IMG/VR virus record: IMGVR_UViG_3300025127_007751
Location: 968 to 64,967 of that record
Source: a virus
Taxonomy: Duplodnaviria; Caudoviricetes
Reading direction: 5' to 3' (one strand)
DNA length: 64,000 bases
Of the stretch, positions 26,971-53,551 are shown piece by piece (within the stretch, counting starts at the first letter, position 1; each line of letters opens with the position of its first letter). The position numbers and the translations under genes were made by a program. Below the pieces are notes generated by a model, which saw nothing but the letters and a program-made list of their open reading frames with translations, ran no database searches and was not told the DNA's origin.

Positions 26971-27702
26971 TTAAATAATTACTACTCCTTTTTTTTCAAT
27001 AACTTCTAAGGCACATTCTTGTGCATAATTAATACTTTCAATTAAACTGCTTCCATTAAGAAGTTGAAAAATAAAAGCAGCGAAAAAAGTATCTCCGGCA
27101 CCAGATAAATCTGAAACCTCAGCTTGTCTTGGTGGTGGTAAAATAGTATTTTTATATCTTACTCCTTTTTCACCTAATGTAATTAATAATTCCCCTTTTA
27201 ATTTTAAATTAGAAATTTTACTTTCATTATTTTCAAATTCGGTTTCATTTATTTTAATAAATGAGGCATTATTAATCCATTCACCAAATATTTTTTTAGT
27301 ATCTATAAAAGAAATAGGATATAAATTAACTAATTTTTCAATATCTTCCTCTTGTAGAAAACCTTTATTATAATCACTAATAATAACTACATCAAATTTA
27401 CCTATTTCTTCAATATTTTTTATTCTTTCACACTGGTCATTTTCATCAACTCTAAGTAACATTTGATTAGTTTTAATGTCAACTAATCTTGTTTTTTCTA
27501 TTTTAGTATCATTAGTTAATAATTTAATATTCCAATCAGGGGCTAAGCTTTTTAAGTTATTATAAACATTTTTAGCCATACCTCCATTTTCTGTTCTATT
27601 TATAGGGTTAAAAACAGGAACTGGTGCCTCGGGGCAAATTCTTTTACATTCACCGTAAATAAATTTATCTTTACAACTGTCTCCTACAACTAATACTTTC
27701 AT
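26971..27702 (-). CDS. heptose-7-phosphate kinase (HldE/RfaE domain I, PfkB family)
   Basis: RICPEAPVPV, GGMAKNV, KTRLV...QMLLRVDE, ISDYNKG, DLSGAGDTF. Confidence 0.85.
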   Translation of the reverse strand: MKVLVVGDSCKDKFIYGECKRICPEAPVPVFNPINRTENGGMAKNVYNNLKSLAPDWNIKLLTNDTKIEKTRLVDIKTNQMLLRVDENDQCERIKNIEEIGKFDVVIISDYNKGFLQEEDIEKLVNLYPISFIDTKKIFGEWINNASFIKINETEFENNESKISNLKLKGELLITLGEKGVRYKNTILPPPRQAEVSDLSGAGDTFFAAFIFQLLNGSSLIESINYAQECALEVIEKKGVVII

Positions 27703-28082
27703 TTATTTAATAAATTTGAAGTTGAATAATCACCAATTCTATCGAAATATACAATTTTTTTAGCATATTGCCCACCTACTATTTCTTTTCCCTTCCAATC
27801 ACTCCCAACAACTAAAACATCAGGTTTAGTTATTTCTACTAACCATTCTAAATGGTCTTTATTATCAAAAACCATTACTTTATCTATAGCCTTTAAACTT
27901 TCTAAAGCATAAACTCTATCTTCTAAATTGTTATATGGTCTATCTGGTCCTTTATCTTGTGATATTTTTTCATCTGAGTCAATGCCTACTATAAGTTCAT
28001 TGCCCAAAGACTTAGCATAATTAAATAATTCAAAATGACCTCTGTGGAGAATATCAAAACAACCATTTACCCAAATTTTCAT
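27699..28082 (-). CDS. heptose-1-phosphate adenylyltransferase (HldE/RfaE domain II)
   Basis: NGCFDILHRGH, VGIDSD, KGPDRP, KPDVLVVGSDW, YSTS. Confidence 0.85.
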   Translation of the reverse strand: MKIWVNGCFDILHRGHFELFNYAKSLGNELIVGIDSDEKISQDKGPDRPYNNLEDRVYALESLKAIDKVMVFDNKDHLEWLVEITKPDVLVVGSDWKGKEIVGGQYAKKIVYFDRIGDYSTSNLLNK

Positions 28083-28098
28083 AACCTAATTTTAACTT

Positions 28099-28566
28099 TT
28101 ATAAATCTATAATTCTATGTATTTTAGTATTTAATTGATTTAAATCATTATGTTGAGTTAATAAAATACAATTTTTATAGTGTTGCCAATCAACTTGATA
28201 GTTAGTGTCTACTACACCACCATTTAACCTTTTAATTAATTCGTTAAGGGCATTAATTGTATATAAAGTATTAGATTCTTTTTTTCTATGGACTAGAATG
28301 GTATTATCAGGAATAGAACCAACATTAGCTTGTTCTACATTATATGTAACAACAAATTCATCTTTACCTACAATTTCAAGAACAAATAACTTATTATAAA
28401 TTATTGTATATTTGCTCTTAATATCTTCAATTAAAGAATCAAGACCTTCAAGATCTGTAAATGTACAAAATAGTTTATTATTCAAATCTCCTAATATTTG
28501 CGTATTATGATCTAAATCATAATTCGGTTTATACATATTAGGATTACTCTGTAAAATTGTAGTCAT
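28099..28566 (-). CDS. hypothetical protein (true start may be TTG at 28485)
   Basis: ORF; phage promoter-like motif at 28529-28538 lies within its annotated 5' end. Confidence 0.7.
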   Translation of the reverse strand: MTTILQSNPNMYKPNYDLDHNTQILGDLNNKLFCTFTDLEGLDSLIEDIKSKYTIIYNKLFVLEIVGKDEFVVTYNVEQANVGSIPDNTILVHRKKESNTLYTINALNELIKRLNGGVVDTNYQVDWQHYKNCILLTQHNDLNQLNTKIHRIIDL

Positions 28567-29815
28567 ACCCTTTTATTTCTTTTGTGTTTAACTTAAACTT
28601 ACTAAATATTAATCTAATCTTATCTAAAAGATCCGTTTCTTTTTCATCTAAATCGAATAAAAATGAATCATAAGTATATAAAATTAATTTAGTATTATAA
28701 TCTTTTAATAAAGAAAACATCTCCCATAATATCATAACATTTGTTGACGTCTCCAAGTTTTGTAAAATATAATTAAATAATTTTTGCGGATTCATGTTCT
28801 CATAATTATTTTTATTAAAAACGTAATTAGAAACAGGACAAATAACGTCCTTTCCCTCCTCAAAATTAGTCCAAATATTCCGTATATACTGTTTTATTTT
28901 TTGAAAATATTCCAGATGCTCATATTGTCTAAAAACACCTCCATATAACTGTTTAAACGTAAGTTCTTTAGATTTAGCATAGCTTACTCCGTAAAGCTTC
29001 GCCATATGACTATGAATATCCACAGTGGGGAAATTATAATCAATGAGGCTACAAGACAAGCTAGGATGATAGGCACTGATATCAATTTCACAAAATATAT
29101 TATTGCTCGGTATAAATGATTTTCTACATCCATTTTCTTTATTAAGTGCTGCATAATTTACTCCTTTAAATTTATTACTAGGTCTAGTTGTTAATGTTTT
29201 TAAGTTGTACTGACTGTGGACGTATTCACCTGATACCTCATGGAAGTACTCTTTGAAGGTTGGTACGTGTATTCGTAATCCACTTCGCTCGATAGCGTTG
29301 AAAACCACTGATACCCTGTTGTTGAAGAACTCACTATATTTTGTTTTTTCATTTTTGATATTATCTTTTAGATCCCTAAAAATTTGCTCACATAATTCAT
29401 AATGCTTGACAATAGGAATAATTAAATTTAATTCATCATTATCTCTATGTTTCCTATAGTAATAATCATGTGTAATTGTTGAAGGTCGTATATACGTAGT
29501 AGGAGGTATATTAATGTCATAAAGAGTTTTTAGTGGAAAATAATGTAATATTTCTTTTTTATCCCTACAATATAAAATATCAAATTTTTTAAGTATAGCG
29601 TCTATACCCGTTTTATTTACATTAATTCCTTCACTATGGTTAATACATATAATATAACCTTTATCCGCTAAAATCGGTTTCAAATACAGTAAAGATACAT
29701 TATTTTTAGCCGGGTGGGTTAAATCATTATAGGGAATAATTTCTATAAATGCTTCTTTATAACCACTATTGTAAAAACACTTTAACTGCTCTATATCTTC
29801 TATAAGCCAGTACAT
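28544..29815 (-). CDS. short, divergent family A DNA polymerase
   Basis: TLTTRPS...NYAAL, motif A EIDISAYHP, motif B KELTFKQLYG, NYILQ, motif C LYTYDS. Confidence 0.8.
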   Translation of the reverse strand: MYWLIEDIEQLKCFYNSGYKEAFIEIIPYNDLTHPAKNNVSLLYLKPILADKGYIICINHSEGINVNKTGIDAILKKFDILYCRDKKEILHYFPLKTLYDINIPPTTYIRPSTITHDYYYRKHRDNDELNLIIPIVKHYELCEQIFRDLKDNIKNEKTKYSEFFNNRVSVVFNAIERSGLRIHVPTFKEYFHEVSGEYVHSQYNLKTLTTRPSNKFKGVNYAALNKENGCRKSFIPSNNIFCEIDISAYHPSLSCSLIDYNFPTVDIHSHMAKLYGVSYAKSKELTFKQLYGGVFRQYEHLEYFQKIKQYIRNIWTNFEEGKDVICPVSNYVFNKNNYENMNPQKLFNYILQNLETSTNVMILWEMFSLLKDYNTKLILYTYDSFLFDLDEKETDLLDKIRLIFSKFKLNTKEIKGYDYNFTE

Positions 29816-29837
29816 ATAACCTTTTATTTACGTAATG

Positions 29838-30662
29838 TTAATAACTATTTCCTACGTCTCCAAATCTTCTTCTTCTTTTTTTAAGAACTATTGGTAATAA
29901 ATTTCTATGTTTATTTTCTATATGTTGCCTTCCCTCCATAGGTCCTTTACCAGGATGGATATGATAAAAACCAATATATTCTCTTCCCGTATCTTCAATT
30001 ATATATTCACCTCCAGAAGTATATAAGTTTTCATTATCACCAAATTTAAAATATTCATCATATCTATCCCTAAAATAACTAGTTAAACCTGATATATTAA
30101 AGTTATTCTGTGTTCTTTTAATTGTATTTTCATTTATTGTTACTACTTTTTCTAGTAAACCTGTTATTACCCAGGGAAGTTGAAAGGCAAAGTATAAATT
30201 ATAATCTACATTAGGTTCTCTTTTAGCATAAGAAGAATAAGTATCAAAATTTACTTCAACAATGTAGTCATCATTATTTCTAGATACAAAATATCTTTGA
30301 AATTCTCCAATTTTATAATTTTCTTTAGTAGGAATTGGATAGAATGGTTTGGGTCTAGGTGGGGGTACATCAGCTAAACCTAATTTATTATTTTTTAAAT
30401 AAGCAACGGGTGCTGTATACTGATTATGATCAGGTTGAGCATTCATTGGGTTATTTATTTCTACATCTAATTCAAATGTTTCTAATGGTACAGCTGTTGT
30501 TAATAGAACATTAGGTGGGTTATTTGGGTTTTTACCACTGTAGTATCTTCCTGATGATGTTTTAAAATAAAAACCTACGTACTCATCCCCATTAGAGGCA
30601 TAACTTAGCTCCTTACCAGAGGTATATAAATTAGTTTTTATTTGTGAAGGTGGAAAATACAT
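29838..30662 (-). CDS. hypothetical protein, probable baseplate-associated
   Basis: Repeated NLYTSGxE...YxGFY motif; last gene of the tail operon. Confidence 0.65.
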   Translation of the reverse strand: MYFPPSQIKTNLYTSGKELSYASNGDEYVGFYFKTSSGRYYSGKNPNNPPNVLLTTAVPLETFELDVEINNPMNAQPDHNQYTAPVAYLKNNKLGLADVPPPRPKPFYPIPTKENYKIGEFQRYFVSRNNDDYIVEVNFDTYSSYAKREPNVDYNLYFAFQLPWVITGLLEKVVTINENTIKRTQNNFNISGLTSYFRDRYDEYFKFGDNENLYTSGGEYIIEDTGREYIGFYHIHPGKGPMEGRQHIENKHRNLLPIVLKKRRRRFGDVGNSY

Positions 30663-40323: not shown

Positions 40324-41127
40324 TTATATTGCCATATTTAATGGCTCGGTAAATAACCAACCGACATGATCTTTAACATTTAAACTAAAAAACAATTTAT
40401 CCATTTGACCACCTCTTCGGTTTTTACTAAACCAAATAGCTCTACCACCATCTTGTTGGAATTTAATATGAGCCATTGCGGTAATCATGTGTTTAAACCT
40501 GTTACTACCGGCGAATTCTCCACCTTTAGTAACCTGCTGAATAATCATAAAATTAGTGTTTCTTTTACTTTGATTTTCAGCTTTATTATGTTTTTCAAAT
40601 AAATTTAACAGTTGAGTCTCTGCATTTTTCATAGTACCACCATGGAAATCTACAACAGCAACTGCTAGTTCGGCAAATGAATCTATTAAAACTGAATCCC
40701 ATCCTTCATGAAGAATAGATTTTAAAATAACTAATGGATCATTTTCAATCCAATCACCCATAAATAAAATAGGTAATTTACCGAATTTAGGAAATCTTTT
40801 AACCATACCAACCATATCAATCTGATTCATCTCACCAGAAATAAATAAAACTTTATGGCCATTTTTTTTCATATTAGCAAGCATATCAAGTAAAACAGTA
40901 GTTTTACCAACACCTGGATCTCCAACAAATGCTACGTTAGTACCTTTCATCATACCTCCTTCACTAGAAAGTAAACTATCAATTTTAGTACCAGTTTTCA
41001 TTGGGACAAATAGCTCAGGATTGAACTTAAAATCATCCATCATCATTGTTGATGGTTTGAATCTATTAACGATTTTACCAACTTTACGGCTTGGTCTACC
41101 TCTTTTAATTTTTACTATGTTTGACAT
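40324..41127 (-). CDS. RadA/Sms-like RecA-fold ATPase (no Zn finger or Lon domain)
   Basis: GDPGVGKTT, ISGEM, LIDS, QVTKGGEFAGS...KH, SKNRRG (cf. KNRFG). Confidence 0.8.
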   Translation of the reverse strand: MSNIVKIKRGRPSRKVGKIVNRFKPSTMMMDDFKFNPELFVPMKTGTKIDSLLSSEGGMMKGTNVAFVGDPGVGKTTVLLDMLANMKKNGHKVLFISGEMNQIDMVGMVKRFPKFGKLPILFMGDWIENDPLVILKSILHEGWDSVLIDSFAELAVAVVDFHGGTMKNAETQLLNLFEKHNKAENQSKRNTNFMIIQQVTKGGEFAGSNRFKHMITAMAHIKFQQDGGRAIWFSKNRRGGQMDKLFFSLNVKDHVGWLFTEPLNMAI

Positions 41128-41801: not shown

Positions 41802-43868
41802 TTACGCTGGGAATGTTGCCCCTGTTGGTAATACATTGAAATCTAGTATAATAAATTCAGCTGTTTTAGTTGGTTGTAGGAATATTTGACCTATCAACTC
41901 ATTTCTATCTATTACATCTGGTGTATTATTACTTTCATCCATTACTACTTTAAAGGCATACAATCCTTGTCTTTGTTGTACACTTTCTAAATATGGGTTA
42001 ACTTGCGTTAAGAAATTCTGTCTTGTTGCTATTGTATTTTGTTCAAATACTAAATTATCAGCAATCTGAGATATGAAATCTTTAAGTGCAATTAACAATC
42101 TTCTAACATTAACTCTATCTAAAGCACTAGCTGCTTTTTGTAGTGTTTTCTGACCAAATACTACTACGCCCTGTTGTGGGAATGTAGCTAATGGGTTTAC
42201 ATTTGCTTCATATAATGTATCTCTATTACCTGAAGTTAATTTTCTTTCAGCTCTAACAACTTGACCTAATCCTCCTCTTGTTATACCAGCTGGTGCAAAC
42301 CAAGGATCACTAGAAGCATCTGTAAATGCATATACACCAGGCATTAATGTTGATGCTGGTACATATACTAATTGAGCCGTATTAGGATCTACTGTTTGAA
42401 CCCAAGGCCAATAAGTTGAAGCATAACTAGAATCAAATGACGCAGCCTGTTGTGTTACAGTACCTATTTGAGAATTATAATTAACTAAATCTACAATAGC
42501 AATTGCATCACCTCTTGCTACAGTATTGTTAACTAAACTTGTTATTTGAGTAGCTCCAGTATCACTATTAGCATTTATTAAACCAGGTATTGTAATTACA
42601 TTATATTGGTAAGCATCTGTATTGGCTAATAAAGCTATAGCATTATTATAATCTGAACCTTTTAATCCTTGAGCATTACTATTATTAATAAATTGGTAAA
42701 AATGAGATCCATTAGCACCATAACCTACTCCCGGGATATTTGAACCAGAAGCACCACCAAAAGAACCTGATGAAACTAAAGGTAAACTTGGGAAAAATTC
42801 ACTTTTAGCTGATCCATCATTATTGAAATAATTAGGTGTAGGTTTATTAACGGCTTTAACCCTTACATAATTAGAAATATTAGGGAAAGAACCGGATTCT
42901 TGGATAAATGTTTCACCTCCTTGAGTTACTAAATTTTTATCAACATCACCTATTACTCTAGAAATATAATTATTAGCAAATGGATCTAATGATACATTAT
43001 TATAAGATTCTAAAACAACTTTTTGGTTGTTATTATCATTACCTCTTCTTATAATTAAAGAAAATACACCTGATCCTGAGTTTACATTTGTTACTTCCCA
43101 TCTAACATTATCTTCACTTCCGGATATTAAAGCTCCATTACCATCAACTACTTCACCACTATCATTGTCCATTATTATACCTTCCGAAATTGTTTCTAAT
43201 TCAAAAGAAGATGTATAATTAAATAATCCAATTACTTGTGATACTCCTTGACCAGGTAAGGTGATAGATAAATCAACACCGTCAGCTGTATTGGATATAG
43301 ATGATGAATCAATAGTTAATATATCACCTGGGGAATAATTTTCACCAGGTAAATTTATTTGAATAGCAGATGAACCTGAACCACCAGCATCTATAGTAAT
43401 ATCTACCGTAGCTCCATCTCCATTTCCTGTTGAAGAAGTTAAAGGAACTTCAGTATAAGCACCCACAGAACCCGAAAATGTTCCATTATTAATAGTAAAT
43501 GAAGCTATACTTGCACTTATGTTAAAATTATTACTAAATGGATTATCCTCTGTTATAACTGCAGAAGATGTAGCTGGAGTAAATGATCCAGATACTACTC
43601 TTGTTACTAATAAAGATTCACCTCCATTTTGGAAGTAGTTATTTGCTGATATTGAAGTTAGATAAGAATATTGATTTGATCCACTTTCTAATGCCCCACC
43701 AAAAATAGCTTGAAATGAACTAAAGGAACTTACTAATGTAGGAATTTCTACTGGTCCTTTAACAGTTGGACCTATAATCGCTGCTCCCCTAGCTAATGGT
43801 TGACTAGTAACGAAAGATTGATCATTTTCTCTTGCTAATACTCCAGGAGATAATAATGTTTCTGCCAT
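41802..43868 (-). CDS. contractile tail sheath protein (gp18-like)
   Basis: SPGVLARE, WFAPAG..RG, VNP, FGQKTLQ...LDRVNVRRLL, QPTKTAEFI. Confidence 0.95.
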   Translation of the reverse strand: MAETLLSPGVLARENDQSFVTSQPLARGAAIIGPTVKGPVEIPTLVSSFSSFQAIFGGALESGSNQYSYLTSISANNYFQNGGESLLVTRVVSGSFTPATSSAVITEDNPFSNNFNISASIASFTINNGTFSGSVGAYTEVPLTSSTGNGDGATVDITIDAGGSGSSAIQINLPGENYSPGDILTIDSSSISNTADGVDLSITLPGQGVSQVIGLFNYTSSFELETISEGIIMDNDSGEVVDGNGALISGSEDNVRWEVTNVNSGSGVFSLIIRRGNDNNNQKVVLESYNNVSLDPFANNYISRVIGDVDKNLVTQGGETFIQESGSFPNISNYVRVKAVNKPTPNYFNNDGSAKSEFFPSLPLVSSGSFGGASGSNIPGVGYGANGSHFYQFINNSNAQGLKGSDYNNAIALLANTDAYQYNVITIPGLINANSDTGATQITSLVNNTVARGDAIAIVDLVNYNSQIGTVTQQAASFDSSYASTYWPWVQTVDPNTAQLVYVPASTLMPGVYAFTDASSDPWFAPAGITRGGLGQVVRAERKLTSGNRDTLYEANVNPLATFPQQGVVVFGQKTLQKAASALDRVNVRRLLIALKDFISQIADNLVFEQNTIATRQNFLTQVNPYLESVQQRQGLYAFKVVMDESNNTPDVIDRNELIGQIFLQPTKTAEFIILDFNVLPTGATFPA

Positions 43869-43924
43869 CTTATTTTATTATTTAATATTGTTTTATTATA
43901 AATATTAAAAACCTTTTCAAAAAA

Positions 43925-44179
43925 CTATTCTGCTACAGTTATTTCTCCTTTTCCTAAATCAATGTTTCCATTTCCATATTTAGTTTGAAGTTCTTTAGCT
44001 ACTACATTAGATTTTTCTTGTAAATCCGCTAACTTTTCTAATACCACACCTCTTTGACCATCTAATAGGGCCTTTTGAATATCAATTCTTCCTAAGTCAA
44101 GGGTAATATTATCGTTTTGTTTTTGAAAATCTACTAGTTTTTTTAGTTCTTCGTCTGATAACTTTATTGTTTTACTCAT
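43925..44179 (-). CDS. small coiled-coil protein, possible fibre chaperone
   Basis: 84 aa, ends KYGNGNIDLGKGEI. Confidence 0.65.
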   Translation of the reverse strand: MSKTIKLSDEELKKLVDFQKQNDNITLDLGRIDIQKALLDGQRGVVLEKLADLQEKSNVVAKELQTKYGNGNIDLGKGEITVAE

Positions 44180-44213
44180 AATACAATTTATTTATAAATA
44201 TTAATAAAAATTT

Positions 44214-46472
44214 TTAGGTTAATAACCTAAGTGCCTCCTCTAATACCCTATCTGGGGTAATAGACTTTTGGCAAATATGCTGTAATTCTGTTCCTTTGTT
44301 AATAGGACACCAATTCCAATCTCCAGCATCAAATTGAAATTCTTTTTTATTCCAACAACTATTACAAACATTAAAGTTTTGTAATTTAGTTATATTTTTT
44401 GTAAATTCATGATCGGGCTCAGTAAAATTATTAATCATTAATGTATGCTTATTTAGTGCCCAATTTATCCAAGATAAACCCGAACCTAAACCTATAAATA
44501 AATCTGCATGATATAAGTAATTAAATAATTCATTCCAAGGTAAGTTATGTCTATCTATAATATTTATTCCTTTAAACCCATTTTTACTTAGCGCAACAAT
44601 ATTATAACCTTTACTATACAACTTTTTAGATAATTGCTTCCAATTTTTATGAGTCCATTCTTTGCATGCGGCAGTTGCTTGAGGGCCTATACAAATGTAT
44701 TTATTTTTTAAGGGTCTTTCACCAGGTGTAAAATCTACTCCATAATTAATTTCTTCAAAATCTAAACCTAATATATCAGAAGCTGATTTGATTAATGGTA
44801 CTGTTTGAGGTAAAGTAGGATTTAAATTACCATTATCCCATTTTCCCTTATTACTAAACCAACCCACTTTATAATGAGCATAACAAACAAAACTACTTCC
44901 GGGATTAATAAATTTAATATCCTTATATTCCTTTAAATTTTCAAACCAATAATTATGAAATGTACTAAGAACTAATTTACAATTATATTTATTTTTAAAT
45001 TTTACTGCTTGAGGAACCCAAGCTAAGGTATCTCCTATTGATTTGGAATCAATAGCAATATAAACTACTTGATTTTCTAAATTTAACTTATGTACTATTT
45101 CACCATTAATTTTTATTACCCAAGGAATATAATATTCTTTATTACATTTAGTCCACATATTATTACTAATAGTATCACTAAAAATTAGTTCATTTGTATC
45201 TCCATTAATAAACTCAACAAAATAATTATTTTTTTCATTGCCCTTAATTTCTACAAAAGGTCCATTAGTAAAATTTATTATTAATTCATTTTTTTCTTGA
45301 TAATTATTTAAAAAAGTAGTTAATTCATTATTAGCAATTTCTGCAACTCTATCCCAATTATAATTTTTATGAATTAATTTAGCATCCTTTATTGCCTGTT
45401 TTTTATGTTTTTTATAATTTTTATAAGCATCCCTCATTACTAATGATAAATCATCAAAATCAGGCTCATAATAATTACCAGGTATGGATTTGGGAGCAGG
45501 GATTTCTTTTTTTATTTTTACCGGAAGTCCTTTATTTTTTGCAAATTCCAACTGGCCCGAACAATTAGAATATATAGATGGAGTTCCACAAGCCATAGCC
45601 TCAATTAGAGGTAAATTCCAACCTTCACTTCTAGCACAAGATAAGAATATATGTCCTTTTTTTAAATATTTTATATAATCCTCTCTAGATACAAAAGATT
45701 TAAACTTTAACCTAGGATCATTAGGTATATTATACTTTTTAATTCTTTCTTCAGTTGTATTACAACCATCTAAATCTTTACCAAAGATATTATCTACTGA
45801 TAGTATTAAATCAACTGGTTCAGAAGGATCAAAGGTAGATAAAAAAGTTTTAATTATTTCAGTAGTAGATTTTCTATATTCCCATCTACCAAAAAGAACA
45901 AATTTAAATCGTCCGTCATAATCTTTATGTTCAATATTATCGTTAGGATAAAAAGTATTTACATCTACACCTTCAGGAATTACTTTTACTTTATTAGGAC
46001 TAGCACCTTGTTTAATAGTATTATCTGCTTGCCATTTAGTTGGTACCCATAATTGGTCAAATTCTAACCATTTATTAAAAAAATCTTCTGGTTGTTTAGT
46101 TGATTCCCATACATTATAACCTATTTTAGGACCTAAATAATCATGGTAATAATAATGATGATTAGTTTCTTGAAGTACTATATTTATATTATGATTAAAA
46201 TTATTTAAAGTATTAGAATAAATGGGTTGATCTATTAGATCTTTTCCATTCCATAATGTTTGAATATTTAATAATTTTTTATCTACACTATTAATATAAC
46301 TTTCACTATTATGGGGTTCGTCATTTAATTCATTCCATGTATTACCTACAGTAAAATTTCTTATTTTGACTTTAGCTAGTTTGGATAAATGTCTAAAAAA
46401 ACTACGGGAGTGTGCATTATAACCCGTATTCCCAATATAACTAGTATGAGCAAATATATGAGGTTTAGTCAT
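44214..46472 (-). CDS. fusion of GT4-like glycosyltransferase and Aah/TibC-type protein O-heptosyltransferase
   Basis: N-terminal half: TGYNAHSR, RSEGWNLPLIEAMACGTP (GT4). C-terminal half: SIGDTLAW, FIGLGSGLSW, CNSCWN...WCP...HICQKSIT four-Cys iron-finger as in Aah/TibC. Confidence 0.85.
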   Translation of the reverse strand: MTKPHIFAHTSYIGNTGYNAHSRSFFRHLSKLAKVKIRNFTVGNTWNELNDEPHNSESYINSVDKKLLNIQTLWNGKDLIDQPIYSNTLNNFNHNINIVLQETNHHYYYHDYLGPKIGYNVWESTKQPEDFFNKWLEFDQLWVPTKWQADNTIKQGASPNKVKVIPEGVDVNTFYPNDNIEHKDYDGRFKFVLFGRWEYRKSTTEIIKTFLSTFDPSEPVDLILSVDNIFGKDLDGCNTTEERIKKYNIPNDPRLKFKSFVSREDYIKYLKKGHIFLSCARSEGWNLPLIEAMACGTPSIYSNCSGQLEFAKNKGLPVKIKKEIPAPKSIPGNYYEPDFDDLSLVMRDAYKNYKKHKKQAIKDAKLIHKNYNWDRVAEIANNELTTFLNNYQEKNELIINFTNGPFVEIKGNEKNNYFVEFINGDTNELIFSDTISNNMWTKCNKEYYIPWVIKINGEIVHKLNLENQVVYIAIDSKSIGDTLAWVPQAVKFKNKYNCKLVLSTFHNYWFENLKEYKDIKFINPGSSFVCYAHYKVGWFSNKGKWDNGNLNPTLPQTVPLIKSASDILGLDFEEINYGVDFTPGERPLKNKYICIGPQATAACKEWTHKNWKQLSKKLYSKGYNIVALSKNGFKGINIIDRHNLPWNELFNYLYHADLFIGLGSGLSWINWALNKHTLMINNFTEPDHEFTKNITKLQNFNVCNSCWNKKEFQFDAGDWNWCPINKGTELQHICQKSITPDRVLEEALRLLT

Positions 46473-46492
46473 TTATAACTTAATTTTGGGGC

Positions 46493-46524
46493 ATAATGTA
46501 AAAAGATTTTATTGAATATCCAAA
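46493..46524 (-). promoter_or_regulatory. Bacteroidota sigmaA-like promoter (TTTG-N20-TACATTAT)
   Basis: Consensus spacing; upstream of the glycosyltransferase. Confidence 0.5.
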
Positions 46525-46528
46525 TACT

Positions 46529-46837
46529 TTACCAAGGTAATCCAATCGCTTTGGGGTGATCAAAATCAATAATAATCTGATTAATAGAAGCTGAATTGTT
46601 AGTTTTTAAAGTATCTACATCTAAACTACCAGTAAACCAACTTAAAACCTTAGATTCATTTAAGTCTTCATAATTAATAAAATCACTATCCGAAACTGAA
46701 CCAGTAGTTAAGGTAATTTCATCATTAATTTCTACTGAGTGGGAATTATGTATAGTTTGAAAGCTATAAAAAACTTTATCCACCATACCAGTGTTTTGAT
46801 TACGTTCTAAATTATCTATAATCCAATTATGTTCCAT
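46529..46837 (-). CDS. tail-fibre-associated small protein
   Basis: FINYEDLNESKVLSW...GLPW, a pattern typical of genes following fibre genes. Confidence 0.6.
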   Translation of the reverse strand: MEHNWIIDNLERNQNTGMVDKVFYSFQTIHNSHSVEINDEITLTTGSVSDSDFINYEDLNESKVLSWFTGSLDVDTLKTNNSASINQIIIDFDHPKAIGLPW

Positions 46838-46850
46838 TTTTTATTAATTT

Positions 46851-49800
46851 TTAAAAGGAGCTACCATCGAAAATTTTATATCTTAATTTAACAGCAATAC
46901 TAATACATCTAGTTCCTAAATTACTTAAACCACTACCAAAAAATATAGTAGTATCCGTGTTTTCTGAGTAAACCCTTTGCTGTAGAGGAATATCTCTATA
47001 ATACATGGCAAAGGTATTAGTTTGCCCCTCTAATTGTAACCATTGATTTATGGTAGTGGCTGGCACTTGAGAGACAGTATTACTACTATTGTTAACGGTA
47101 CCCTGTCTAACTACTATATTACCACTTGTTGTAGGTAGTGTACCAGATCCTGGATTCATTTTACATAAGAAAAATGTTTCTGTTATTACACAAAAAAGAT
47201 TTGAACCAGGATTAGACATTAAGTTTTGTGATCCTCCCGCTATTATTGTAGATCTAGGAAATGTATAAGTGGATTCCATCATATCCCTAACAACTTCTCC
47301 ACTTGTATTAACACCTAAGGTATTAACAGTTCCATTATTATTTTGTTGTCCAGTTGGGAAAGAAGATCCACTAGCAGCAAATGAATAACCATTAAATTTA
47401 ACAGCAGTATTTAGCACCTCCATTGCTGGAGTATTATTAGTATTTATTTTAAGTGCTCCAGAATTAGTAGTTATTTCATTACCACCTGAACTATGTATAA
47501 TTCTTAAATCATAATCATCACTTGCAGGGGCTTTAAAATCTATAAATCCACCACTAGAACCACCGACCTCTACGGCCGCAAAACCACCAGCATTAGTTAA
47601 AGTTAAAACACCACCAGATAAAGTACTTGACTCAACTGTAACATTAGGAGAAGACCCATTTAAAGTTAAAATACCATTATCCGTTGTTCCAGATAAAGTT
47701 ACAGTACCACTAGAACCACTTGTACCACTTGAACCAGAAGTTCCACTTGATCCAGAAGTACCTGGGTTACCATCTCCACCAGAAGAACCACTTGTACCAC
47801 TTGAACCAGAAGTTCCACTTGATCCAGAAGTACCTGGGTTACCATCTCCACCAGAAGAACCACTTGTACCTGAAGAACCTGAAGTACCATCACCACCAGA
47901 ACTACCACTTGTACCGGAAGAACCAGAAGTACCATCAGAACCGTCTCCACCTGATGAACCTGAAGTACCGGAAGAACCTGATGTACCAGAATTACCTGAA
48001 GATCCACTTGAACCACTAGTTCCATTATTACCACTTAATATAAACCCTATTGCATCACCATCTGAAAATATTGCCCCAGATCCAGTTGATGAATCCGTAG
48101 TACAAGTTAATATTTGAGTATTTGAACTATAACTTGCATTAGCTGTTACATTTAAAACTATAAAAGAAGTAGGACTGGAAACTTTATAAAGTCCCAATTT
48201 GACATTATTAGTACCAATAGAAGAAAGTATATTAGCTATACTAGCATTATTAATATTTTCTTTACTTATTCGTAAAGAGTTAATAGTACTATTATCATTA
48301 TTAGAAGTACTTCCAAATTGGAATTCTCCAGAAGACTGATTTGAAGGTGATCCTGTACTATATCCATCAAATTCAGATTCAAAAATAAATTTAGGTAAAC
48401 CGGAAGAACCACTAGAACCCGATGTACCACTTGAGCCACTAGTTCCAGAAGAACCACTTGTACCAGAAGAACCAGAAGTACCAGAGTTACCTGAGGAACC
48501 ACTTGTACCACTTGAACCTGACGTACCTGAACCACCTGAAGATCCACTTGTACCAGAAGAACCTGATGTACCATCTCCACCAGAAGAACCAGATGTACCA
48601 GAAGAACCTGATGTACCAGAAGAACCTGATGTGCCCGAATTACCACTTGAACCAGAAGTTCCACTTGAACCAGAAGTACCATCTGAACCATCACCACCAG
48701 AACTACCACTTGTACCACTTGAACCACTTGTTCCTGAATTACCAGAAGAACCCGAAGTACCTGAAGAACCACTAGTACCTGGTGAACCATCACCACCTGA
48801 TGAACCTGAAGTACCAGAAGAACCTGAAGTACCTGAATTACCTGATGAACCAGATGTACCAGAAGATCCAGAAGTACCTGTATTACCAGAAGAACCAGAA
48901 GTACCTGATGAACCACTTGTACCTGAAGAACCCGCTCCTGCTGGGCCTTCTATAACATTACCACTTGAATCAACTTGTAAAGTTTTGGCTGCAGTACCAG
49001 TAAAGTTTCCTGATCCATATCCATTAAGTTTTAATTGTTGGGTTGAAGCTAATCTAAGAGCTTCAACTAAAGTTCCTGAGGAATTCATTGTTGAAACTTT
49101 AAAGTAACCATCTTCACTACTTGCGGCTCCACTTTCAGCAAAACCTCCAATTTGAGCTCTTTCTATTTCATTAGTAGTTGAATTTCTGTTACTACTAAAA
49201 GAAATTATTCCTCCAGTATTTGATGTTTCAAACTCACTATCATATATTTTTAGCCCTGCTAATGTGTCAAATGAATCTCTTTCATAAGTTATTTTTTGAG
49301 AACCACTTAAATTTAACGAACCTGTCATATTTAAATTAGTACCATCAAAAGTTAACTTAGCTTCTGCATTTAATTCACCTGCTATACCTGTTGCAGTTGT
49401 AACTCTATTATTAATATTATTATAAATTATAGCCGAACCACTAGAACCAGAAGAACCACTTGTACCACTAGACCCGGAAGTTCCACTTGAGCCACTAGTT
49501 CCAGAATTACCCGAAGATCCCGAAGTACCTGAAGAACCTGAAGTACCAGAATTACCACTTGAGCCAGAAGTACCAGATGAACCACTTGTACCAGAGTTAC
49601 CACTTGAACCGCTTGTTCCAGATGAGCCACTTGTTCCAGAAGAACCACTTGTTCCTGAGTTACCACTTGAACCCGAAGAACCTGATGTACCTGAATTACC
49701 AGATGAACCAGAAGAACCAGATGTACCTGAAGAACCTGAAGTACCACTTGAACCCGATGTACCACTATCTCCCTTATCACCTGTAACTACAAAGGAAACT

Positions 49801-52016
49801 ACTATTGCTTCTCCAGCACTAAAAGGAGAAGTAGCTGATGATGCTTGTTCACCTATATTTATTGTCCAATAAGTACCTTGGTCTGTTAGATCTGAAATAG
49901 AAAATAATATAAAGTTTTCTTCAGCAAATTTATCAGCCATTCGCATATGACCTTTTACTGCTGAGGTTGAGCTATCTATTGTTTGTAAAAATGATTCAAT
50001 ACTATCACCATCCGCAGTTGTTTGGGAAATGGCTGCAATGGTTGAAGTATTTTGATTTGATTGATTTAATCTTATATCCCCATTCCCTGGGTCCGCACCA
50101 ATATTTGTGTTAGCTTCAAAATCATAATTAAAGGAAGCACCACCAAAGTTACCATCTTGACCTGATGTACCACTTGATCCACTTGTTCCAGAGTTACCTG
50201 ATGAACCACTAGTACCTGAGGAGCCGCTTGTACCAGAATTACCACTTGAACCGGAAGTACCACTTGAACCAGAAGTTCCAGATGAGCCACTTGTACCAGA
50301 ATTACCACTTGAACCAGAAGAACCTGATGTACCAGAATTACCTGAAGAACCTGAAGTACCAGAAGAACCAGAAGTACCATCAGAGCCGTCTCCCCCTGAT
50401 GAACCTGAAGTACCACTTGAACCAGATGTACCAGAATTTCCAGAAGAACCACTTGTGCCACTTGAACCTGATGTTCCTGAATTACCTGATGAGCCACTTG
50501 TACCACTAGATCCTGAAGTACCTGAGTTACCTGAAGAACCACTTGTTCCACTAGAGCCTGATGTTCCTGAAGAACCTGCTCCAGCTGGGCCCTCTATAAT
50601 ATTACCACTAGCGTCTACTTGTAGTGTTTTTGTTGCCGTTCCAGTGTAAGTACCAGAACCATATTCATTAAATATTATTTGACCAGTATCGTTTATAGTA
50701 AAAGCTTGGGTAGCTGAGCCTGCCTCAGTAGATCTATAAGCCCATTGAAGTTTACCATTAGAATCTATTTCTTGAGTCCAAATTTTAACTCCATCCCTTG
50801 ATTGTCTAATACCTGATTTTGCAGCAGTAGAACCACTAAGATGTAATTTACTTCTAGGAGTAAGTGATCCAATACCTAAATTTCCATTATGTGAAAGAAA
50901 CATTTTAGCTGTTACACCATCACTACCAGTAGTAGAAAATTTAATACCACCTAATGAACTGAAATCATCTAAAGGTGAAGAGAAAGTAGTAAAGTTAACA
51001 ACAAAAGTATTTTTTTCATTACTTTCATCATCCCAACCAAATCCAGCTTTATTTACACCATCTTGGACTAAAGTAACTTGAGGATCATAAGTTGTATCAC
51101 TAGAAGTAACAGATATTTGTAAGTTTTTATTATCTGGATCATAATATAAAAATTCATTTAAACTTTCTGTATCAATAACTAATAAATAACCATCATTAAT
51201 TCTTGTATTACCATTAACCCTTAACCTATTACTTGCGTTTATAGCCGTTCCAACTGCCAGATTTGTACCATCAAAAAGTAAATTAGCTTCAGCATTTAGT
51301 TCACCTTGAACTCCAGTTGAAGTTGTTACACGATTATCCCCTAAATTTGTTATTGTTGCAGTTCCACTTGAACCCGAAGAACCTGATGTACCTGAAGAAC
51401 CTGAGGTACCACTTGATCCACTAGTACCAGAGTTACCACTTGAACCAGAAGTTCCACTAGAACCACTAGTTCCAGAATTACCACTAGATCCTGAAGTACC
51501 ACTAGATCCAGAAGAGCCACTTGTTCCGCTTGAACCAGAAGTACCAGAGTTACCTGAGGAACCACTTGTTCCACTTGAACCTGATGTTCCGGAAGAACCT
51601 GCTCCTGCTGGTCCTTCTATTATATTTCCAGAAGAATCAACTTGTAATGTTTTAGTAGCTGTACCAGTATAAGTTCCTGATCCGTATTTGTTGAATTTTA
51701 TTTGACCACTATTTAATATTTGTTGACTAGTATCATTATTAGTTTCAAAATCAATATCCGAACTTAATTCTAATTTAGAACCATCCGAGTTATTGGTCTC
51801 AAGTGCTATATTACCTACGTTATTTATTAAATTTGCATCACCACCTGGTTCAAGAACAAGTTTATTAAAATCTGTTGGTGAATCAATATCAGTTCCTATT
51901 ACTGCGTTAGCGGAACTACCACCGGTGTAAGAAGAAGCTGTAACTTGGCCAGTTACATTTAGAGTATTTAAGTGAGCGTCAGAACCGCTAGTTATTACTT
52001 TTTTCCAATTTGGCAT
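46851..52016 (-). CDS. long fibre protein with multiple Ser/Thr-rich collagen-like (Gly-X-Y) segments
   Basis: Five SGTSGSSGNSGT repeat blocks separated by beta-rich globular modules. Confidence 0.8.
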   Translation of the reverse strand: MPNWKKVITSGSDAHLNTLNVTGQVTASSYTGGSSANAVIGTDIDSPTDFNKLVLEPGGDANLINNVGNIALETNNSDGSKLELSSDIDFETNNDTSQQILNSGQIKFNKYGSGTYTGTATKTLQVDSSGNIIEGPAGAGSSGTSGSSGTSGSSGNSGTSGSSGTSGSSGSSGTSGSSGNSGTSGSSGTSGSSGNSGTSGSSGTSGSSGTSGSSGSSGTATITNLGDNRVTTSTGVQGELNAEANLLFDGTNLAVGTAINASNRLRVNGNTRINDGYLLVIDTESLNEFLYYDPDNKNLQISVTSSDTTYDPQVTLVQDGVNKAGFGWDDESNEKNTFVVNFTTFSSPLDDFSSLGGIKFSTTGSDGVTAKMFLSHNGNLGIGSLTPRSKLHLSGSTAAKSGIRQSRDGVKIWTQEIDSNGKLQWAYRSTEAGSATQAFTINDTGQIIFNEYGSGTYTGTATKTLQVDASGNIIEGPAGAGSSGTSGSSGTSGSSGNSGTSGSSGTSGSSGNSGTSGSSGTSGSSGNSGTSGSSGTSGSSGGDGSDGTSGSSGTSGSSGNSGTSGSSGSSGNSGTSGSSGTSGSSGTSGSSGNSGTSGSSGTSGSSGNSGTSGSSGTSGQDGNFGGASFNYDFEANTNIGADPGNGDIRLNQSNQNTSTIAAISQTTADGDSIESFLQTIDSSTSAVKGHMRMADKFAEENFILFSISDLTDQGTYWTINIGEQASSATSPFSAGEAIVVSFVVTGDKGDSGTSGSSGTSGSSGTSGSSGSSGNSGTSGSSGSSGNSGTSGSSGTSGSSGTSGSSGNSGTSGSSGTSGSSGNSGTSGSSGTSGSSGNSGTSGSSGTSGSSGTSGSSGSSGSAIIYNNINNRVTTATGIAGELNAEAKLTFDGTNLNMTGSLNLSGSQKITYERDSFDTLAGLKIYDSEFETSNTGGIISFSSNRNSTTNEIERAQIGGFAESGAASSEDGYFKVSTMNSSGTLVEALRLASTQQLKLNGYGSGNFTGTAAKTLQVDSSGNVIEGPAGAGSSGTSGSSGTSGSSGNTGTSGSSGTSGSSGNSGTSGSSGTSGSSGGDGSPGTSGSSGTSGSSGNSGTSGSSGTSGSSGGDGSDGTSGSSGTSGSSGNSGTSGSSGTSGSSGTSGSSGGDGTSGSSGTSGSSGGSGTSGSSGTSGSSGNSGTSGSSGTSGSSGTSGSSGTSGSSGSSGLPKFIFESEFDGYSTGSPSNQSSGEFQFGSTSNNDNSTINSLRISKENINNASIANILSSIGTNNVKLGLYKVSSPTSFIVLNVTANASYSSNTQILTCTTDSSTGSGAIFSDGDAIGFILSGNNGTSGSSGSSGNSGTSGSSGTSGSSGGDGSDGTSGSSGTSGSSGGDGTSGSSGTSGSSGGDGNPGTSGSSGTSGSSGTSGSSGGDGNPGTSGSSGTSGSSGTSGSSGTVTLSGTTDNGILTLNGSSPNVTVESSTLSGGVLTLTNAGGFAAVEVGGSSGGFIDFKAPASDDYDLRIIHSSGGNEITTNSGALKINTNNTPAMEVLNTAVKFNGYSFAASGSSFPTGQQNNNGTVNTLGVNTSGEVVRDMMESTYTFPRSTIIAGGSQNLMSNPGSNLFCVITETFFLCKMNPGSGTLPTTSGNIVVRQGTVNNSSNTVSQVPATTINQWLQLEGQTNTFAMYYRDIPLQQRVYSENTDTTIFFGSGLSNLGTRCISIAVKLRYKIFDGSSF

Positions 52017-52024
52017 ATCTATTC

Positions 52025-52075
52025 TATTAGGTTGGCTACTGTTTTATCAGTCCACTTCCCTTACGGGCCTTAATA
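52025..52075 (-). ncRNA. candidate structured 5'-UTR RNA (three-way junction with GNRA tetraloop)
   Basis: TATTA(A)GG[CCC-GTAA-GGG]AAG[TGG-ACTG-ATAAAA-CAGT-AG-CCA]A-CCTAATA; GC-rich island in an AT-rich spacer. Confidence 0.45.
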
Positions 52076-52104
52076 TTTGTTATAAATATATTTAGATTTT
52101 TAAT

Positions 52105-52287
52105 CTATTTAGGAATAGGTGGTTTTTTTTCAATTTCTTCCTTTTTTTCTATATTTTGAATTTTGGTAATTAATTTAGCTTGAAGCATGCCTATAAACAT
52201 TGCATCAATTCCAGTAATTGGAATATAATCTAATGCTTTTCTTAAGGCTCTTAGTTCTCTAAGACTTAATTTTTGCAAATTATACAT
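52105..52287 (-). CDS. small hypothetical protein
   Basis: 60 aa ORF between fibre genes. Confidence 0.6.
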   Translation of the reverse strand: MYNLQKLSLRELRALRKALDYIPITGIDAMFIGMLQAKLITKIQNIEKKEEIEKKPPIPK

Positions 52288-52289
52288 AA

Positions 52290-52520
52290 CTATTTATTTA
52301 ATTCTTTAAATTTTTCTTGTAATTTTAAAGTTGTATTGTAACAAATTTCTACATATTCACCTTTAAATAAACTGTTTTTAATTGTTACTAATAGAAATTC
52401 TAATTCTCGTGCTGTTAATTCGACGTCAATAGTAGGTGGTTCAGATTTTTTTGTCTTGCCACCTACTACTAAATTTTTAGTATTAAAACTCATAAACCAA
52501 TTTAATATTTTATAAAACAA
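52290..52520 (-). CDS. small hypothetical protein
   Basis: 76 aa ORF between fibre genes. Confidence 0.6.
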   Translation of the reverse strand: MFYKILNWFMSFNTKNLVVGGKTKKSEPPTIDVELTARELEFLLVTIKNSLFKGEYVEICYNTTLKLQEKFKELNK

Positions 52521-52531
52521 TTTTTAATATA

Positions 52532-53551
52532 TTAAGAATATATAAAGATGTCTTGTGATGATGAAACAAAAATATTACCCTTTTTAACATATTGTGAGGC
52601 AATAGTTCCTGTTTGATCAGCACCACTTCCACCTACTACTACAGCTGCCATAAATGCATCTGGTGTAAATGCTGCTGAGCCATCTCCAGCGTCAAACGAT
52701 GAAGTAACTGCCCATCTTGTTGTACCTGCATCGTATGCAAATAATTCACCTTTATCTTGTGTTGTTTGTTGTACAACTATACCACCATCTCCAACTGTAG
52801 TTGAACCAGAAGCTAATAGTACAAACCTATCCTTAACTAATAAATTTTCTGTATTTCTAAATGAGGCAGTACCATCAACAGTTAAATCATGAGTAATAAT
52901 AACATCACCTGTAACTGTTAATAATCCATTACCATCGGAACCTCCCGCACTAGCAAAAGTTAAATTTTCTTCAGCATTTAACTCTCCTGGGGTACCTGTT
53001 GAAGTAGTTACTCTATCATTTCCTTCATTAGTAATAGTAGCAGCACCACTAGAACCTGAAGAACCACTTGAACCACTTGTACCAGAAGAACCACTTGTTC
53101 CTGAGTTACCACTTGAACCTGAGGTACCACTTGAACCACTTGTTCCTGCAGCACCAGAAGAACCTGAGGTACCACTTGAACCAGAAGTACCGTCATCACC
53201 AGCTTCACCAGAAGAACCACTAGTTCCAGAAGAACCACTTGTACCAGAAGAACCAGAAGTACCAGAATCACCTGAAGATCCACTTGTACCACTTGAACCG
53301 GAAGTACCAGAATTACCTGAAGAACCTGAAGTACCACTTGAACCACTTGTTCCCGAATTACCTGAAGAACCTGATGTACCTGAAGAGCCACTTGTACCCG
53401 AAGATGCAGCGTTTTCTCTTGTACCAACTACACCTGAGGGGTTAATTGTTAGTACTGTGTCTTCACTGCCTTGTGTTGATAAATTAGATAGGGATAATTG
53501 AGCTAATTCAGCATTAGATCCACTAACTATTACTTTTTTCCAATTTGCCAT
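52532..53551 (-). CDS. short fibre protein with Ser/Thr collagen-like repeat
   Basis: MANWKKVIVSGS N-terminus shared with the long fibre; ~115-aa SGTSGS block. Confidence 0.8.
   Translation of the reverse strand: MANWKKVIVSGSNAELAQLSLSNLSTQGSEDTVLTINPSGVVGTRENAASSGTSGSSGTSGSSGNSGTSGSSGTSGSSGNSGTSGSSGTSGSSGDSGTSGSSGTSGSSGTSGSSGEAGDDGTSGSSGTSGSSGAAGTSGSSGTSGSSGNSGTSGSSGTSGSSGSSGSSGAATITNEGNDRVTTSTGTPGELNAEENLTFASAGGSDGNGLLTVTGDVIITHDLTVDGTASFRNTENLLVKDRFVLLASGSTTVGDGGIVVQQTTQDKGELFAYDAGTTRWAVTSSFDAGDGSAAFTPDAFMAAVVVGGSGADQTGTIASQYVKKGNIFVSSSQDIFIYS

Follow-up and report, generated by a model that had tools for sequence, protein, structure and literature searches.

A TibC/Aah-type transferase and its candidate collagen-like fibre acceptors in an uncultured T4-like phage

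Does a phage attach sugars to its own fibres by means of an enzyme family that is known from bacterial adhesins? The question is raised by an open reading frame (ORF) of the IMG/VR virus record IMGVR_UViG_3300025127_007751, a contig of 64,967 bases with a CheckV completeness of about 32%, of which 64,000 bases (positions 968 to 64,967; here called the window) were analysed. Its product, P0001, joins a GT4 glycosyltransferase domain to a domain of the bacterial autotransporter heptosyltransferase (BAHT) family, and its gene lies close to genes for collagen-like fibres (Table 1). The favoured reading, to which a probability of roughly 0.55 is attached, is that P0001 would be a late-expressed cytoplasmic O-glycosyltransferase that moves heptose from ADP-heptose to serines in the Gly-X-Y triplets of the fibres, with the GT4 half adding a further sugar. 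Comparative genomics supports fibre glycosylation well. An obligate three-part system consisting of transferase, fibres and a pair of HldE-like enzymes is not supported by the distribution of these genes.

A transferase of the TibC/Aah type

The C-terminal half of P0001 is recognised by the NCBIfam model TIGR04414 (hepto_Aah_TibC) over residues 397-746 (profile positions 12-370 of 374) with 226.1 bits and an expectation value (E) of 6.4e-67, the curated equivalog cut-off of this model being 200 bits. The model for lipopolysaccharide (LPS) heptosyltransferase I, TIGR02193, gives 30.4 bits, and the TibC chains 4rap and 4rb4 of the PDB align with residues 415-742 at E 6e-38. Pfam places the GT9 family (PF01075) on residues 588-713; the domain is nonetheless of the Aah/TibC type and not an LPS enzyme of GT9, as shown by the TIGR04414 and TIGR02193 scores and by the TibC match. 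This is the identity that the original prediction, made from the letters of this DNA without database searches, had assigned to it, and the motifs quoted in its favour are present in the translation; a closer match to LPS enzymes of GT9 than to Aah/TibC, which would have refuted it, did not occur. The proposed fusion to a GT4-like domain was likewise borne out by PF00534 (residues 231-314, E 2e-12) and PF20706 (residues 160-378), and this half matches the glycosyltransferase family phrog_2170 at E 9e-37.

Table 1. Features of the window that bear on the proposed fibre glycosylation
Feature	Position	Strand	Matches
P0001, 752-aa single ORF, GT4 + BAHT fusion	44214-46472	-	
BAHT (TibC/Aah-type) domain, C-terminal half, residues ~395-752 of P0001	44214-45290	-	TIGR04414, TibC 4rap
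GT4 (GT-B) glycosyltransferase domain, N-terminal half of P0001	45291-46472	-	PF00534, PF13692, PF20706, phrog_2170
DUF7936 protein, 102 aa, between fibre and transferase	46529-46837	-	PF25590, E 2.7e-12
Collagen-like fibre, 1721 aa, proposed acceptor	46851-52016	-	PF01391, tail-fibre PHROGs
Collagen-like fibre protein, 339 aa, second proposed acceptor	52532-53551	-	PF01391, E 2.8e-17
ATATTTATAA upstream of the fibre gene, candidate late promoter element	52080-52089	-	
Next copy of the motif, past the transferase, upstream of an 84-aa gene	44192-44201	-	
HldE domain II-like nucleotidyltransferase, 127 aa	27699-28082	-	TIGR02199, phrog_7878 (E 1e-46), PF01467
Short PfkB kinase, 243 aa, HldE domain I/HldA-like	26971-27702	-	TIGR02198, phrog_8133 (E 2e-75)
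Stand-alone phosphomannose-isomerase-type cupin, 125 aa, candidate only for the isomerase step	4978-5355	-	PF01050, E 6e-30

The roles of individual residues were taken from those sections of the TibC structure paper that are drawn on here (PMC4358343) and mapped through the HMMER alignment to 4rap, and their conservation was counted over 103 aligned viral or metagenomic homologues. In TibC, Asp-110 is the catalytic base, while Thr-226, Lys-230 and Trp-305 contact the beta-phosphate and heptose of the donor. The corresponding Asp481, Lys604 and Trp668 of P0001 are kept in 103 of 103 homologues, and Thr600 in 101. The substrate-binding iron finger of TibC (Cys-339/342/358/370) returns as Cys703/706/722/734, kept in 97-98 of the homologues, and binding of iron by P0001 is predicted from these cysteines. 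A GT4-BAHT relative at L046:8786-11086 has all four replaced (N, I, D, A) and its catalytic residues kept. Pro-300, which governs the choice between D,D- and L,D-heptose in TibC, has become Gly663, a position filled by G in 74 homologues, S in 26, T in two and A in one.

In a maximum-likelihood tree of 40 sequences, whose midpoint root serves the drawing only, four plasmid-borne bacterial BAHTs form one clade (100/100) on a long branch, and the BAHT of the window belongs to a clade of 18 rows, itself well supported (100/99), that is nested within the other viral clades. Judged from its profile matches and residues, P0001 is therefore best described as a genuine BAHT relative that belongs to a thumbless, mostly viral branch (the thumb is treated below) and not as a canonical autotransporter heptosyltransferase. 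Among 90% protein clusters 754 proteins match at E <= 1e-10, and among 1.84 billion 50% clusters there are 1337, 1011 and 588 matching representatives at E <= 1e-3, 1e-10 and 1e-30, respectively. In existing annotation, one NCBI nr entry is named 'autotransporter strand-loop-strand O-heptosyltransferase [bacterium]', and the domain occurs in just 4 of 50,697 phage records, namely Microcystis phage Mel-JY01 and three metagenomic huge-phage records.

Fusion to other domains is common, as among 46 long representatives, chosen by length from the best 150 matches, 24 carry a GT4, 18 a methyltransferase, 4 a GT2 and 2 a PIG-L deacetylase domain. A set of 55 related IMG/VR loci anchored on the BAHT gene contains GT4-BAHT proteins of about 760 amino acids (aa), GT4-BAHT-PIG-L proteins of about 1240 aa, separate GT4 and BAHT genes (L041, L043, L053, L054) and the reversed order (L022); the architecture in Mel-JY01 is GT4-FkbM-BAHT. 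The BAHT gene is followed in 48 of the 55 loci by an 84-aa gene, the sheath and the tube, and is preceded by neck genes or by fibre genes and a DUF7936 gene. The slot itself is an island of sugar genes that differs from locus to locus; the 74 ORFs scanned, from 11 loci, include genes for C-methyltransferase, Polysacc_synt_2 dehydratase, GT25, carbamoyltransferase, PIG-L, APS-kinase-like, HAD and nucleotidyltransferase proteins. At L010:1841-3081 an APS-kinase-like protein, a 112-aa HAD protein and a small nucleotidyltransferase occupy the slot before GT4-BAHT.

Collagen-like fibres and their association with the transferase

As originally noted, the transferase gene lies one small gene away from that of a 1721-aa fibre, the intervening gene encoding a DUF7936 protein that is found at the equivalent position in related loci. 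The fibre had been described as rich in serine and threonine. Both residues are indeed abundant (416 Ser and 203 Thr, with 337 Gly), and the description as merely Ser/Thr-rich needs correction: the fibres are collagen-like, because their repeats have a period of three. PF01391 matches the long fibre in 11 stretches with 236.9 bits, above the Pfam threshold, and five Gly-X-Y runs cover 636 residues or 212 triplets. The Y position is Ser in 188 of these triplets and Pro in four; at X there are 93 Ser, 80 Thr, 25 Asn and 10 Gly and no Pro at all. Runs with proline absent from X and found four times at Y may still form a triple helix. The 339-aa protein shares its N-terminus with the long fibre, has one Gly-X-Y run of 120 residues, 36 of whose 40 triplets carry Ser at Y, and in its C-terminal domain shares 35.5% identity with a structural protein of the virion of Flavobacterium phage immuto. 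In the DNA, the repeat periods are multiples of nine, and since most arrays show only 63-84% matches, the Gly-X-Y pattern has been maintained beyond recent slippage.

The placement of the transferase gene within the virion module was examined through candidate regulatory sites. The motif ATATTTATAA occurs 15 times in the window as compared to 2.95 copies expected, an excess of about five-fold that was reached in none of 100 shuffles, and most copies lie 15-70 bases upstream of structural genes (sites include 37126, 39189, 41777, 43896, 44192, 52080, 56702, 57639, 58203 and 58230). This distribution marks it as the probable late promoter element in this group of phages. Neither this motif nor a terminator-like site is present in the intergenic gaps that separate the fibre, DUF7936 and GT4-BAHT genes, and because copies of the motif flank the three genes, they would constitute one late transcription unit; with nothing promoter-like or terminator-like between it and the fibre gene, the transferase keeps its assignment to the virion module. 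The T4 late-promoter word TATAAATA was dropped as a candidate (31 matches versus 21.6 expected, a number reached in 6 of 100 shuffles), and scans of 43500-54200 for sigma-70-like promoters and terminators remained at or below shuffle expectation.

Co-occurrence was counted across genomes. Ser-rich Gly-X-Y genes were found in 18 of the 35 BAHT-anchored loci with at least 3 kb of upstream sequence, and in none of 82 phage loci (1.4 Mb) anchored on the kinase described below, a weak control, since structural modules do not lie at the centre of those loci. Approached from the fibres, 64 of 77 fibre-anchored loci have Ser-rich Gly-X-Y ORFs and 13 do not. A BAHT gene lies inside the locus for 29 of the 64, and when the other 48 contigs were searched in full with TIGR04414, 12 more proved to have one, all of them among the 35 remaining contigs with Ser-rich Gly-X-Y repeats, so that the contig totals are 41 of 64 with such repeats and 0 of 13 without. 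After dereplication by single linkage at 90% identity, 42 clusters remain: 22 combine repeats and BAHT, 10 have the repeats alone, 10 have neither and none has a BAHT alone. The Fisher p of 1.3e-4 for these counts is only indicative, given the kinship among the clusters. G036 and G044, two complete genomes of 84 kb, pair a BAHT with a 3626-aa ORF that is almost pure Gly-X-Y. Phage immuto, whose fibres have N- and C-terminal domains in common with those of the window, has no Gly-X-Y runs, BAHT, kinase or adenylyltransferase.

The association extends to bacterial chromosomes. When 185,579 species genomes of cellular organisms were scanned with a single BAHT protein, no relative emerged, and an alignment-based scan of cellular genomes returned 33 loci (L227-L259). 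Among the closer homologues (L227-L235), seven of nine have Ser-rich Gly-X-Y ORFs within 8 kb; among the canonical loci of Acetobacteraceae, Trinickia and similar bacteria (L236-L259), none of 24 has them, many adjoin ORFs of 900-1700 aa, and one has an annotated AIDA-I gene. In three gammaproteobacterial metagenome-assembled genomes, BAHTs 34-36% identical lie beside small (GTSGSS)n lipoproteins on the chromosome, with genes for histidine kinases, a sigma-54 activator, PhoX and arginase in the vicinity. These BAHTs lack the thumb and keep Arg-286, and each of the repeat proteins, which are 140-203 aa long, combines a signal peptide and a lipobox-like Cys site with the (GTSGSS)n repeat and a tail of acidic residues. 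This independent chromosomal context is the strongest single argument that Ser-rich Gly-X-Y repeats would be the acceptor. In L229:6572-9101, L233:7084-10586 and L234:5893-9065 a DUF6502 gene overlaps the thumbless BAHT gene and faces the (GTSGSS)n genes, an arrangement that makes up a candidate bacterial glycolipoprotein system in its own right. The expectation that the transferase co-occurs with Ser-rich fibres was therefore supported, with 41 of 64 contigs against 0 of 13, and with a recurrence across phage lineages and bacterial chromosomes.

Donor supply and the weighing of alternatives

The window also encodes a kinase and an adenylyltransferase, the genes of which overlap by 4 bases, and which had been taken for the two halves of HldE. 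The coordinates hold, and the best family matches are indeed rfaE_dom_I and rfaE_dom_II; equivalog rank is not attained by either. TIGR02198 is still the top-scoring family for the kinase, which is shorter (243 aa) than the 315-position model, and its GAGDT motif is invariant in six of six aligned relatives. In the PDB the kinase comes closest to the D-beta-D-heptose 7-phosphate kinase 4e84 (E 3.6e-12), in an alignment of two parts that leave out about 80 residues of that chain; the adenylyltransferase has its best match in 5x9q (E 7e-19), with glycerol-3-phosphate cytidylyltransferase (73 bits) as the runner-up family. GmhA and GmhB had been reported as missing from the window, and no match to them or to HldD was found in the whole 64,967-base record, given its completeness of about 32%. 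The lack of an epimerase in the record is no obstacle, because the donor used by TibC itself is ADP-D,D-heptose (PMC4358343). The one cupin of the window, which lies 22 kb from the pair, matches the C-terminal part of TIGR01479 with 114.9 bits and is 31% identical to the cupin of L043, which sits between adenylyltransferase and kinase. A homologue of the small HAD protein of related cassettes was sought in the record and none was found, in a search that lacked a control and hence says little.

Relatives of the kinase were found by alignment search, a single-protein scan of viral contigs having yielded two loci, and the cassette proves to be widespread, with at least 555 related stretches in viral contigs. 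Within 10 kb of the kinase in the 82 loci there is a nucleotidyltransferase in 42, a small cupin in 40, a protein of about 115 aa that starts with DxDxT in 36 and an SDR epimerase in 23. The epimerase of the P-SSM2 cassette matches the ADP-glyceromanno-heptose 6-epimerase model TIGR02197 with 209.9 bits (cut-off 274.6), and this HldD-like match supports heptose as the sugar. The small cassette cupin has weak matches to WbuC and lyxose-isomerase families; in the relatives, the small HAD protein and the cupin may stand in for GmhB and GmhA. In P-SSM2 and P-TIM68, the 115-aa DxDxT genes (L062:7719-8063 and L061:9272-9610) are annotated as 'phosphoheptose isomerase', and the 115-aa cyanophage protein weakly matches HAD phosphatases (TIGR01689, E 1e-8; HAD-IIIA) and not the SIS-type GmhA; the 'cysteine dioxygenase' beside it is a small cupin. 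Both annotations look wrong on the strength of these matches. As for gene order, the slot before gp32 contains adenylyltransferase, HAD, cupin and kinase genes in L068 and L069, and the overlapping pair alone in L066, L067 and the window. The pair directly follows the BAHT gene in L043 and L054-L056, and lies 1.4 kb from it in L143.

How, then, might these parts work together? P0001 would act in the cytoplasm, late in infection, before or during assembly of the fibres, and its acceptors would be serines in the proline-free (Gly-Ser/Thr/Asn-Ser)n runs of the two fibre proteins of the phage. The BAHT half would transfer heptose from an ADP-activated donor, with Asp481 as the catalytic base, and the fused GT4 half would then add a further sugar. 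According to the TibC paper (PMC4358343, in the sections used), TibC and AAH modify Ser and not Thr, a preference that fits the Ser-dominated Y position, the fit being suggestive only. The kinase and adenylyltransferase may help to supply the donor, as an accessory and not as an obligate partner. With respect to purpose, the glycans may serve in helix stabilisation, shielding or receptor binding. It can be speculated that sugars stabilise a triple helix that lacks proline, by analogy with the glycosylated Thr of vent-worm cuticle collagen, which Mann is said to have described in 1996; an equally speculative alternative is that they form a mucin-like sheath.

A number of observations weigh against this reading and have to be set beside it. 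In TibC, the tip of a beta-hairpin thumb (Phe-265/Val-266) holds the active dodecamer together, and Arg-286 contacts adenine N1, its mutation having abolished or strongly reduced activity (PMC4358343). In P0001, the thumb is replaced by a deletion of about 10 residues, seen in the HMMER alignment to TibC and in MAFFT alignments, and Arg-286 by Leu649, the 103 homologues having mostly T, V, S, I, L or A, with Arg outside the six commonest residues; because of this replacement the nucleotide part of the donor may differ from ADP. The arginine is kept in four of four plasmid-borne bacterial BAHTs and in L047, L049, L053, L229, L233 and L234. On the side of the donor, the kinase gives 121.5 bits to TIGR02198, where the cut-off is 345 (ribokinase, 41 bits), and the adenylyltransferase 110.6 bits to TIGR02199, where it is 181.5; no pathway isomerase or phosphatase lies beside the pair in the window. 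The kinase cassette occurs in about 30 cyanomyophage records devoid of a BAHT, and only one of the 82 kinase loci has a BAHT within 10 kb. Conversely, BAHTs are present and the kinase missing in Mel-JY01 (complete), G036 (100% complete), G040 (89%) and G025 (78%), G025 alone having an adenylyltransferase-like gene. The pair can thus be an accessory source of donor at most. On the side of the acceptor, 17 of the 35 BAHT loci with sufficient upstream sequence show no Gly-X-Y gene in the locus, and G043 (complete, 27.8 kb) and G035 (147 kb, 80% complete) have Ser-rich Gly-X-Y repeats and lack a BAHT. The co-occurrence counts come from related and fragmentary contigs and are uncorrected for phylogeny, and no glycan has been observed on any of these phages. 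The original prediction that the phage heptosylates its own fibres or capsid is thus supported in part, by the BAHT identity, the position in the virion module and the co-occurrence; an HldE-like pair as an obligate component is not supported, and the enzyme departs from TibC in lacking the thumb and Arg-286.

The loss of the adenine contact in the clade of the window leads directly to a different possibility, that the donor is something other than ADP-heptose, with another nucleotide or another sugar, and that the kinase/nucleotidyltransferase pair serves another pathway. The glycine at the stereoselectivity position, the complete BAHT phages that have no kinase, and the highly varied sugar genes in the slot of relatives, from PIG-L, C-methyltransferase and Polysacc_synt_2 to GT25, carbamoyltransferase and APS-kinase-like proteins, would all suit it. 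Yet the Thr-226, Lys-230 and Trp-305 contacts to beta-phosphate and heptose are conserved, the adenylyltransferase and kinase directly adjoin the BAHT in L043 and L054-L056, and the thumbless gammaproteobacterial homologues keep Arg-286, so that this donor hypothesis is considered unlikely. It could also be asked if the target is another virion protein, such as sheath, capsid or neck, or a host protein such as an adhesin, since the transferase lacks an adjacent fibre gene in about half of the related loci, mycobacteriophage glycans reside on capsid and tail-tube subunits (PMC12619734, in the text drawn on), and bacterial BAHTs act on beta-helical adhesins (PMC4358343). P0001, however, has no neighbouring autotransporter adhesin or autotransporter-like partner, its neighbours being collagen-like fibres and tail genes; the Ser-rich Gly-X-Y association recurs in distant phage lineages and bacterial chromosomes, and contigs lacking such repeats had no BAHT in 13 of 13 cases, which makes a different target quite unlikely.

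Remodelling of the host surface, either LPS or capsule, during infection, with the pair feeding host heptosyltransferases, is regarded as improbable. The cassette is common in cyanomyophages that have no BAHT, and that of P-SSM2 was read as LPS biosynthesis (PMC1079782, as far as its text was used here), but the BAHT family consists of protein Ser-transferases with a substrate-binding iron finger (PMC4358343), the gene sits within the late structural block of a lytic-type T4-like genome, and the Pfam-scanned window shows no membrane-associated LPS or O-antigen genes. Glycosylation of DNA was rejected as well, as BAHT is a protein transferase, the gene is in the structural block, and the DNA-modification genes form a separate 7-deazaguanine cluster. 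Fibre glycosylation by P0001 thus continues to be the preferred reading. A wider version of it is tentative and, taken as a whole, rather doubtful: thumbless BAHTs and (Gly-Ser/Thr-Ser)n proteins would be a widespread enzyme-substrate pair, common to many aquatic phages and some bacteria, in which Y-position Ser is O-heptosylated in a role like that of hydroxyproline, or of the glycosylated Thr of vent-worm cuticle collagen, giving sugar-sheathed fibres, and in hosts that lack ADP-heptose a non-orthologous phage route (cupin isomerase, short PfkB kinase, 115-aa HAD phosphatase and small adenylyltransferase) would produce it from sedoheptulose 7-phosphate.

The phage, the significance of the reading, and known systems

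The source of the window is, by gene content, a distant T4-like myovirus, and can be described as an uncultured, aquatic phage. Its GC content is about 30% and every sizeable gene is on the minus strand. Replication and recombination are represented by ribonucleotide reductase, DnaB, a 5'-3' exonuclease, a RecA/UvsX-like protein and gp32, the tail by baseplate proteins, tail tube and tail sheath, and the head by a gp23-type capsid protein and a prohead protease. The capsid protein is nearest to those of Flavobacterium phage immuto (54.6% identity) and Microcystis phage Mel-JY01 (48.2%).

Several other loci of the window deserve a record, all on the minus strand. Positions 7954-12977, perhaps to 13862, hold a 7-deazaguanine cluster that comprises a FolE2-type GTP cyclohydrolase, flavodoxin, a radical-SAM protein (QueE-like), PTPS/QueD, thioredoxin and QueC, with a tRNA-Gln inside it at 12102-12175; one paper on 7-deazaguanine DNA modifications is said to include the related phage immuto. 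A family B DNA polymerase is apparently split across 3771-7061, where 5352-7061 covers the exonuclease domain together with the beginning of the polymerase domain, and a 311-aa ORF at 3771-4706 has no Pfam match and contains a YVDTDS-type motif; between the two pieces are the cupin gene of Table 1 and an 88-aa ORF. A chaperone set of GroEL (551 aa), GroES (125 aa) and an Hsp20 small heat-shock protein occupies 151-2929. Finally, a 267-aa RecA/KaiC/DnaB-like P-loop ATPase at 40324-41127 lies between baseplate-hub and tail-tube genes, and is found in some relatives only (L004-L007, L023, L043).

If the preferred reading is true, cytoplasmic O-heptosylation of Ser on collagen-like fibres would be a second, chemically distinct form of phage virion glycosylation, and the BAHT family, known only as a modifier of virulence adhesins in Proteobacteria, would extend to a large viral radiation with a different class of substrate. 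Glycan-coated fibres would bear on host recognition, on resistance to proteases and grazers, and on the stickiness of particles in aquatic phages, and the kinase cassette, which in cyanophages has long carried the label 'LPS genes', would acquire a product that can be tested. A literature search, from which subscription journals were largely left out, returned no paper on a phage-encoded BAHT, on heptosylated phage fibres or on Mel-JY01.

Among known systems, the nearest are TibC-TibA and Aah-AIDA-I of E. coli, which are homologous to P0001 over about 330 residues, including part of the N-terminal barrel and the GT-B core. Shared features are the aspartate that acts as catalytic base, the donor contacts Thr, Lys and Trp, and the iron finger with its four cysteines, and in each case the gene for the enzyme adjoins that for a long, repetitive, Ser-rich surface protein. 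Unlike TibC, P0001 is fused to a GT4 domain, has its thumb, and with it the dodecamer contact, deleted and has lost Arg-286; its neighbour is a proline-free collagen-like phage fibre, whereas that of TibC and Aah is a beta-helical autotransporter, and the viral BAHT clades stand apart from the four bacterial BAHTs with full support (100/100).

The proposed acceptor finds its parallel in the collagen-like spore proteins. Glycosylation of BclA, the collagen-like spore protein of B. anthracis, was reportedly described by Daubenspeck in 2004. A similar protein is BclA3 of C. difficile, a collagen-like spore glycoprotein with its transferase SgtA (PMC7157674, in the text used). As proposed for the phage fibres, these are Gly-X-Y filaments of the bacterial type in which the collagen-like region is O-glycosylated by a dedicated transferase. 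The transferases and sugars are others, the proteins belong to the spore surface, and the triplets of the phage are dominated by Ser and poor in Pro, in contrast to BclA, in which the glycosylated residue is Thr in GPT-type triplets.

With regard to donor synthesis, the comparison is with GmhA-HldE-GmhB-(HldD) of E. coli, where the kinase and nucleotidyltransferase of the window find their closest counterparts in the two HldE domains and in HldA (4e84). Unlike HldE, they are encoded by two separate genes in reverse order, the kinase is shorter, and their scores lie under the equivalog cut-offs. The 'LPS gene' clusters of P-SSM2 and P-TIM68 have the same cassette plus an HldD-like epimerase, and in the cassettes of relatives a small cupin and the 115-aa DxDxT HAD protein appear to replace GmhA and GmhB, which again differs from E. 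coli. Finally, glycosylation of virions by phages has a precedent in the mycobacteriophages, where glycans are found at the C-termini of capsid and tail-tube subunits (PMC12619734 and PMC12801897, citing Freeman 2023). Compared by description only, the two cases are alike in that phage glycosyltransferases modify, or here would modify, the virion proteins of the phage itself, and they differ in that the sections of those papers drawn on mention no BAHT, heptose or collagen-like acceptor.

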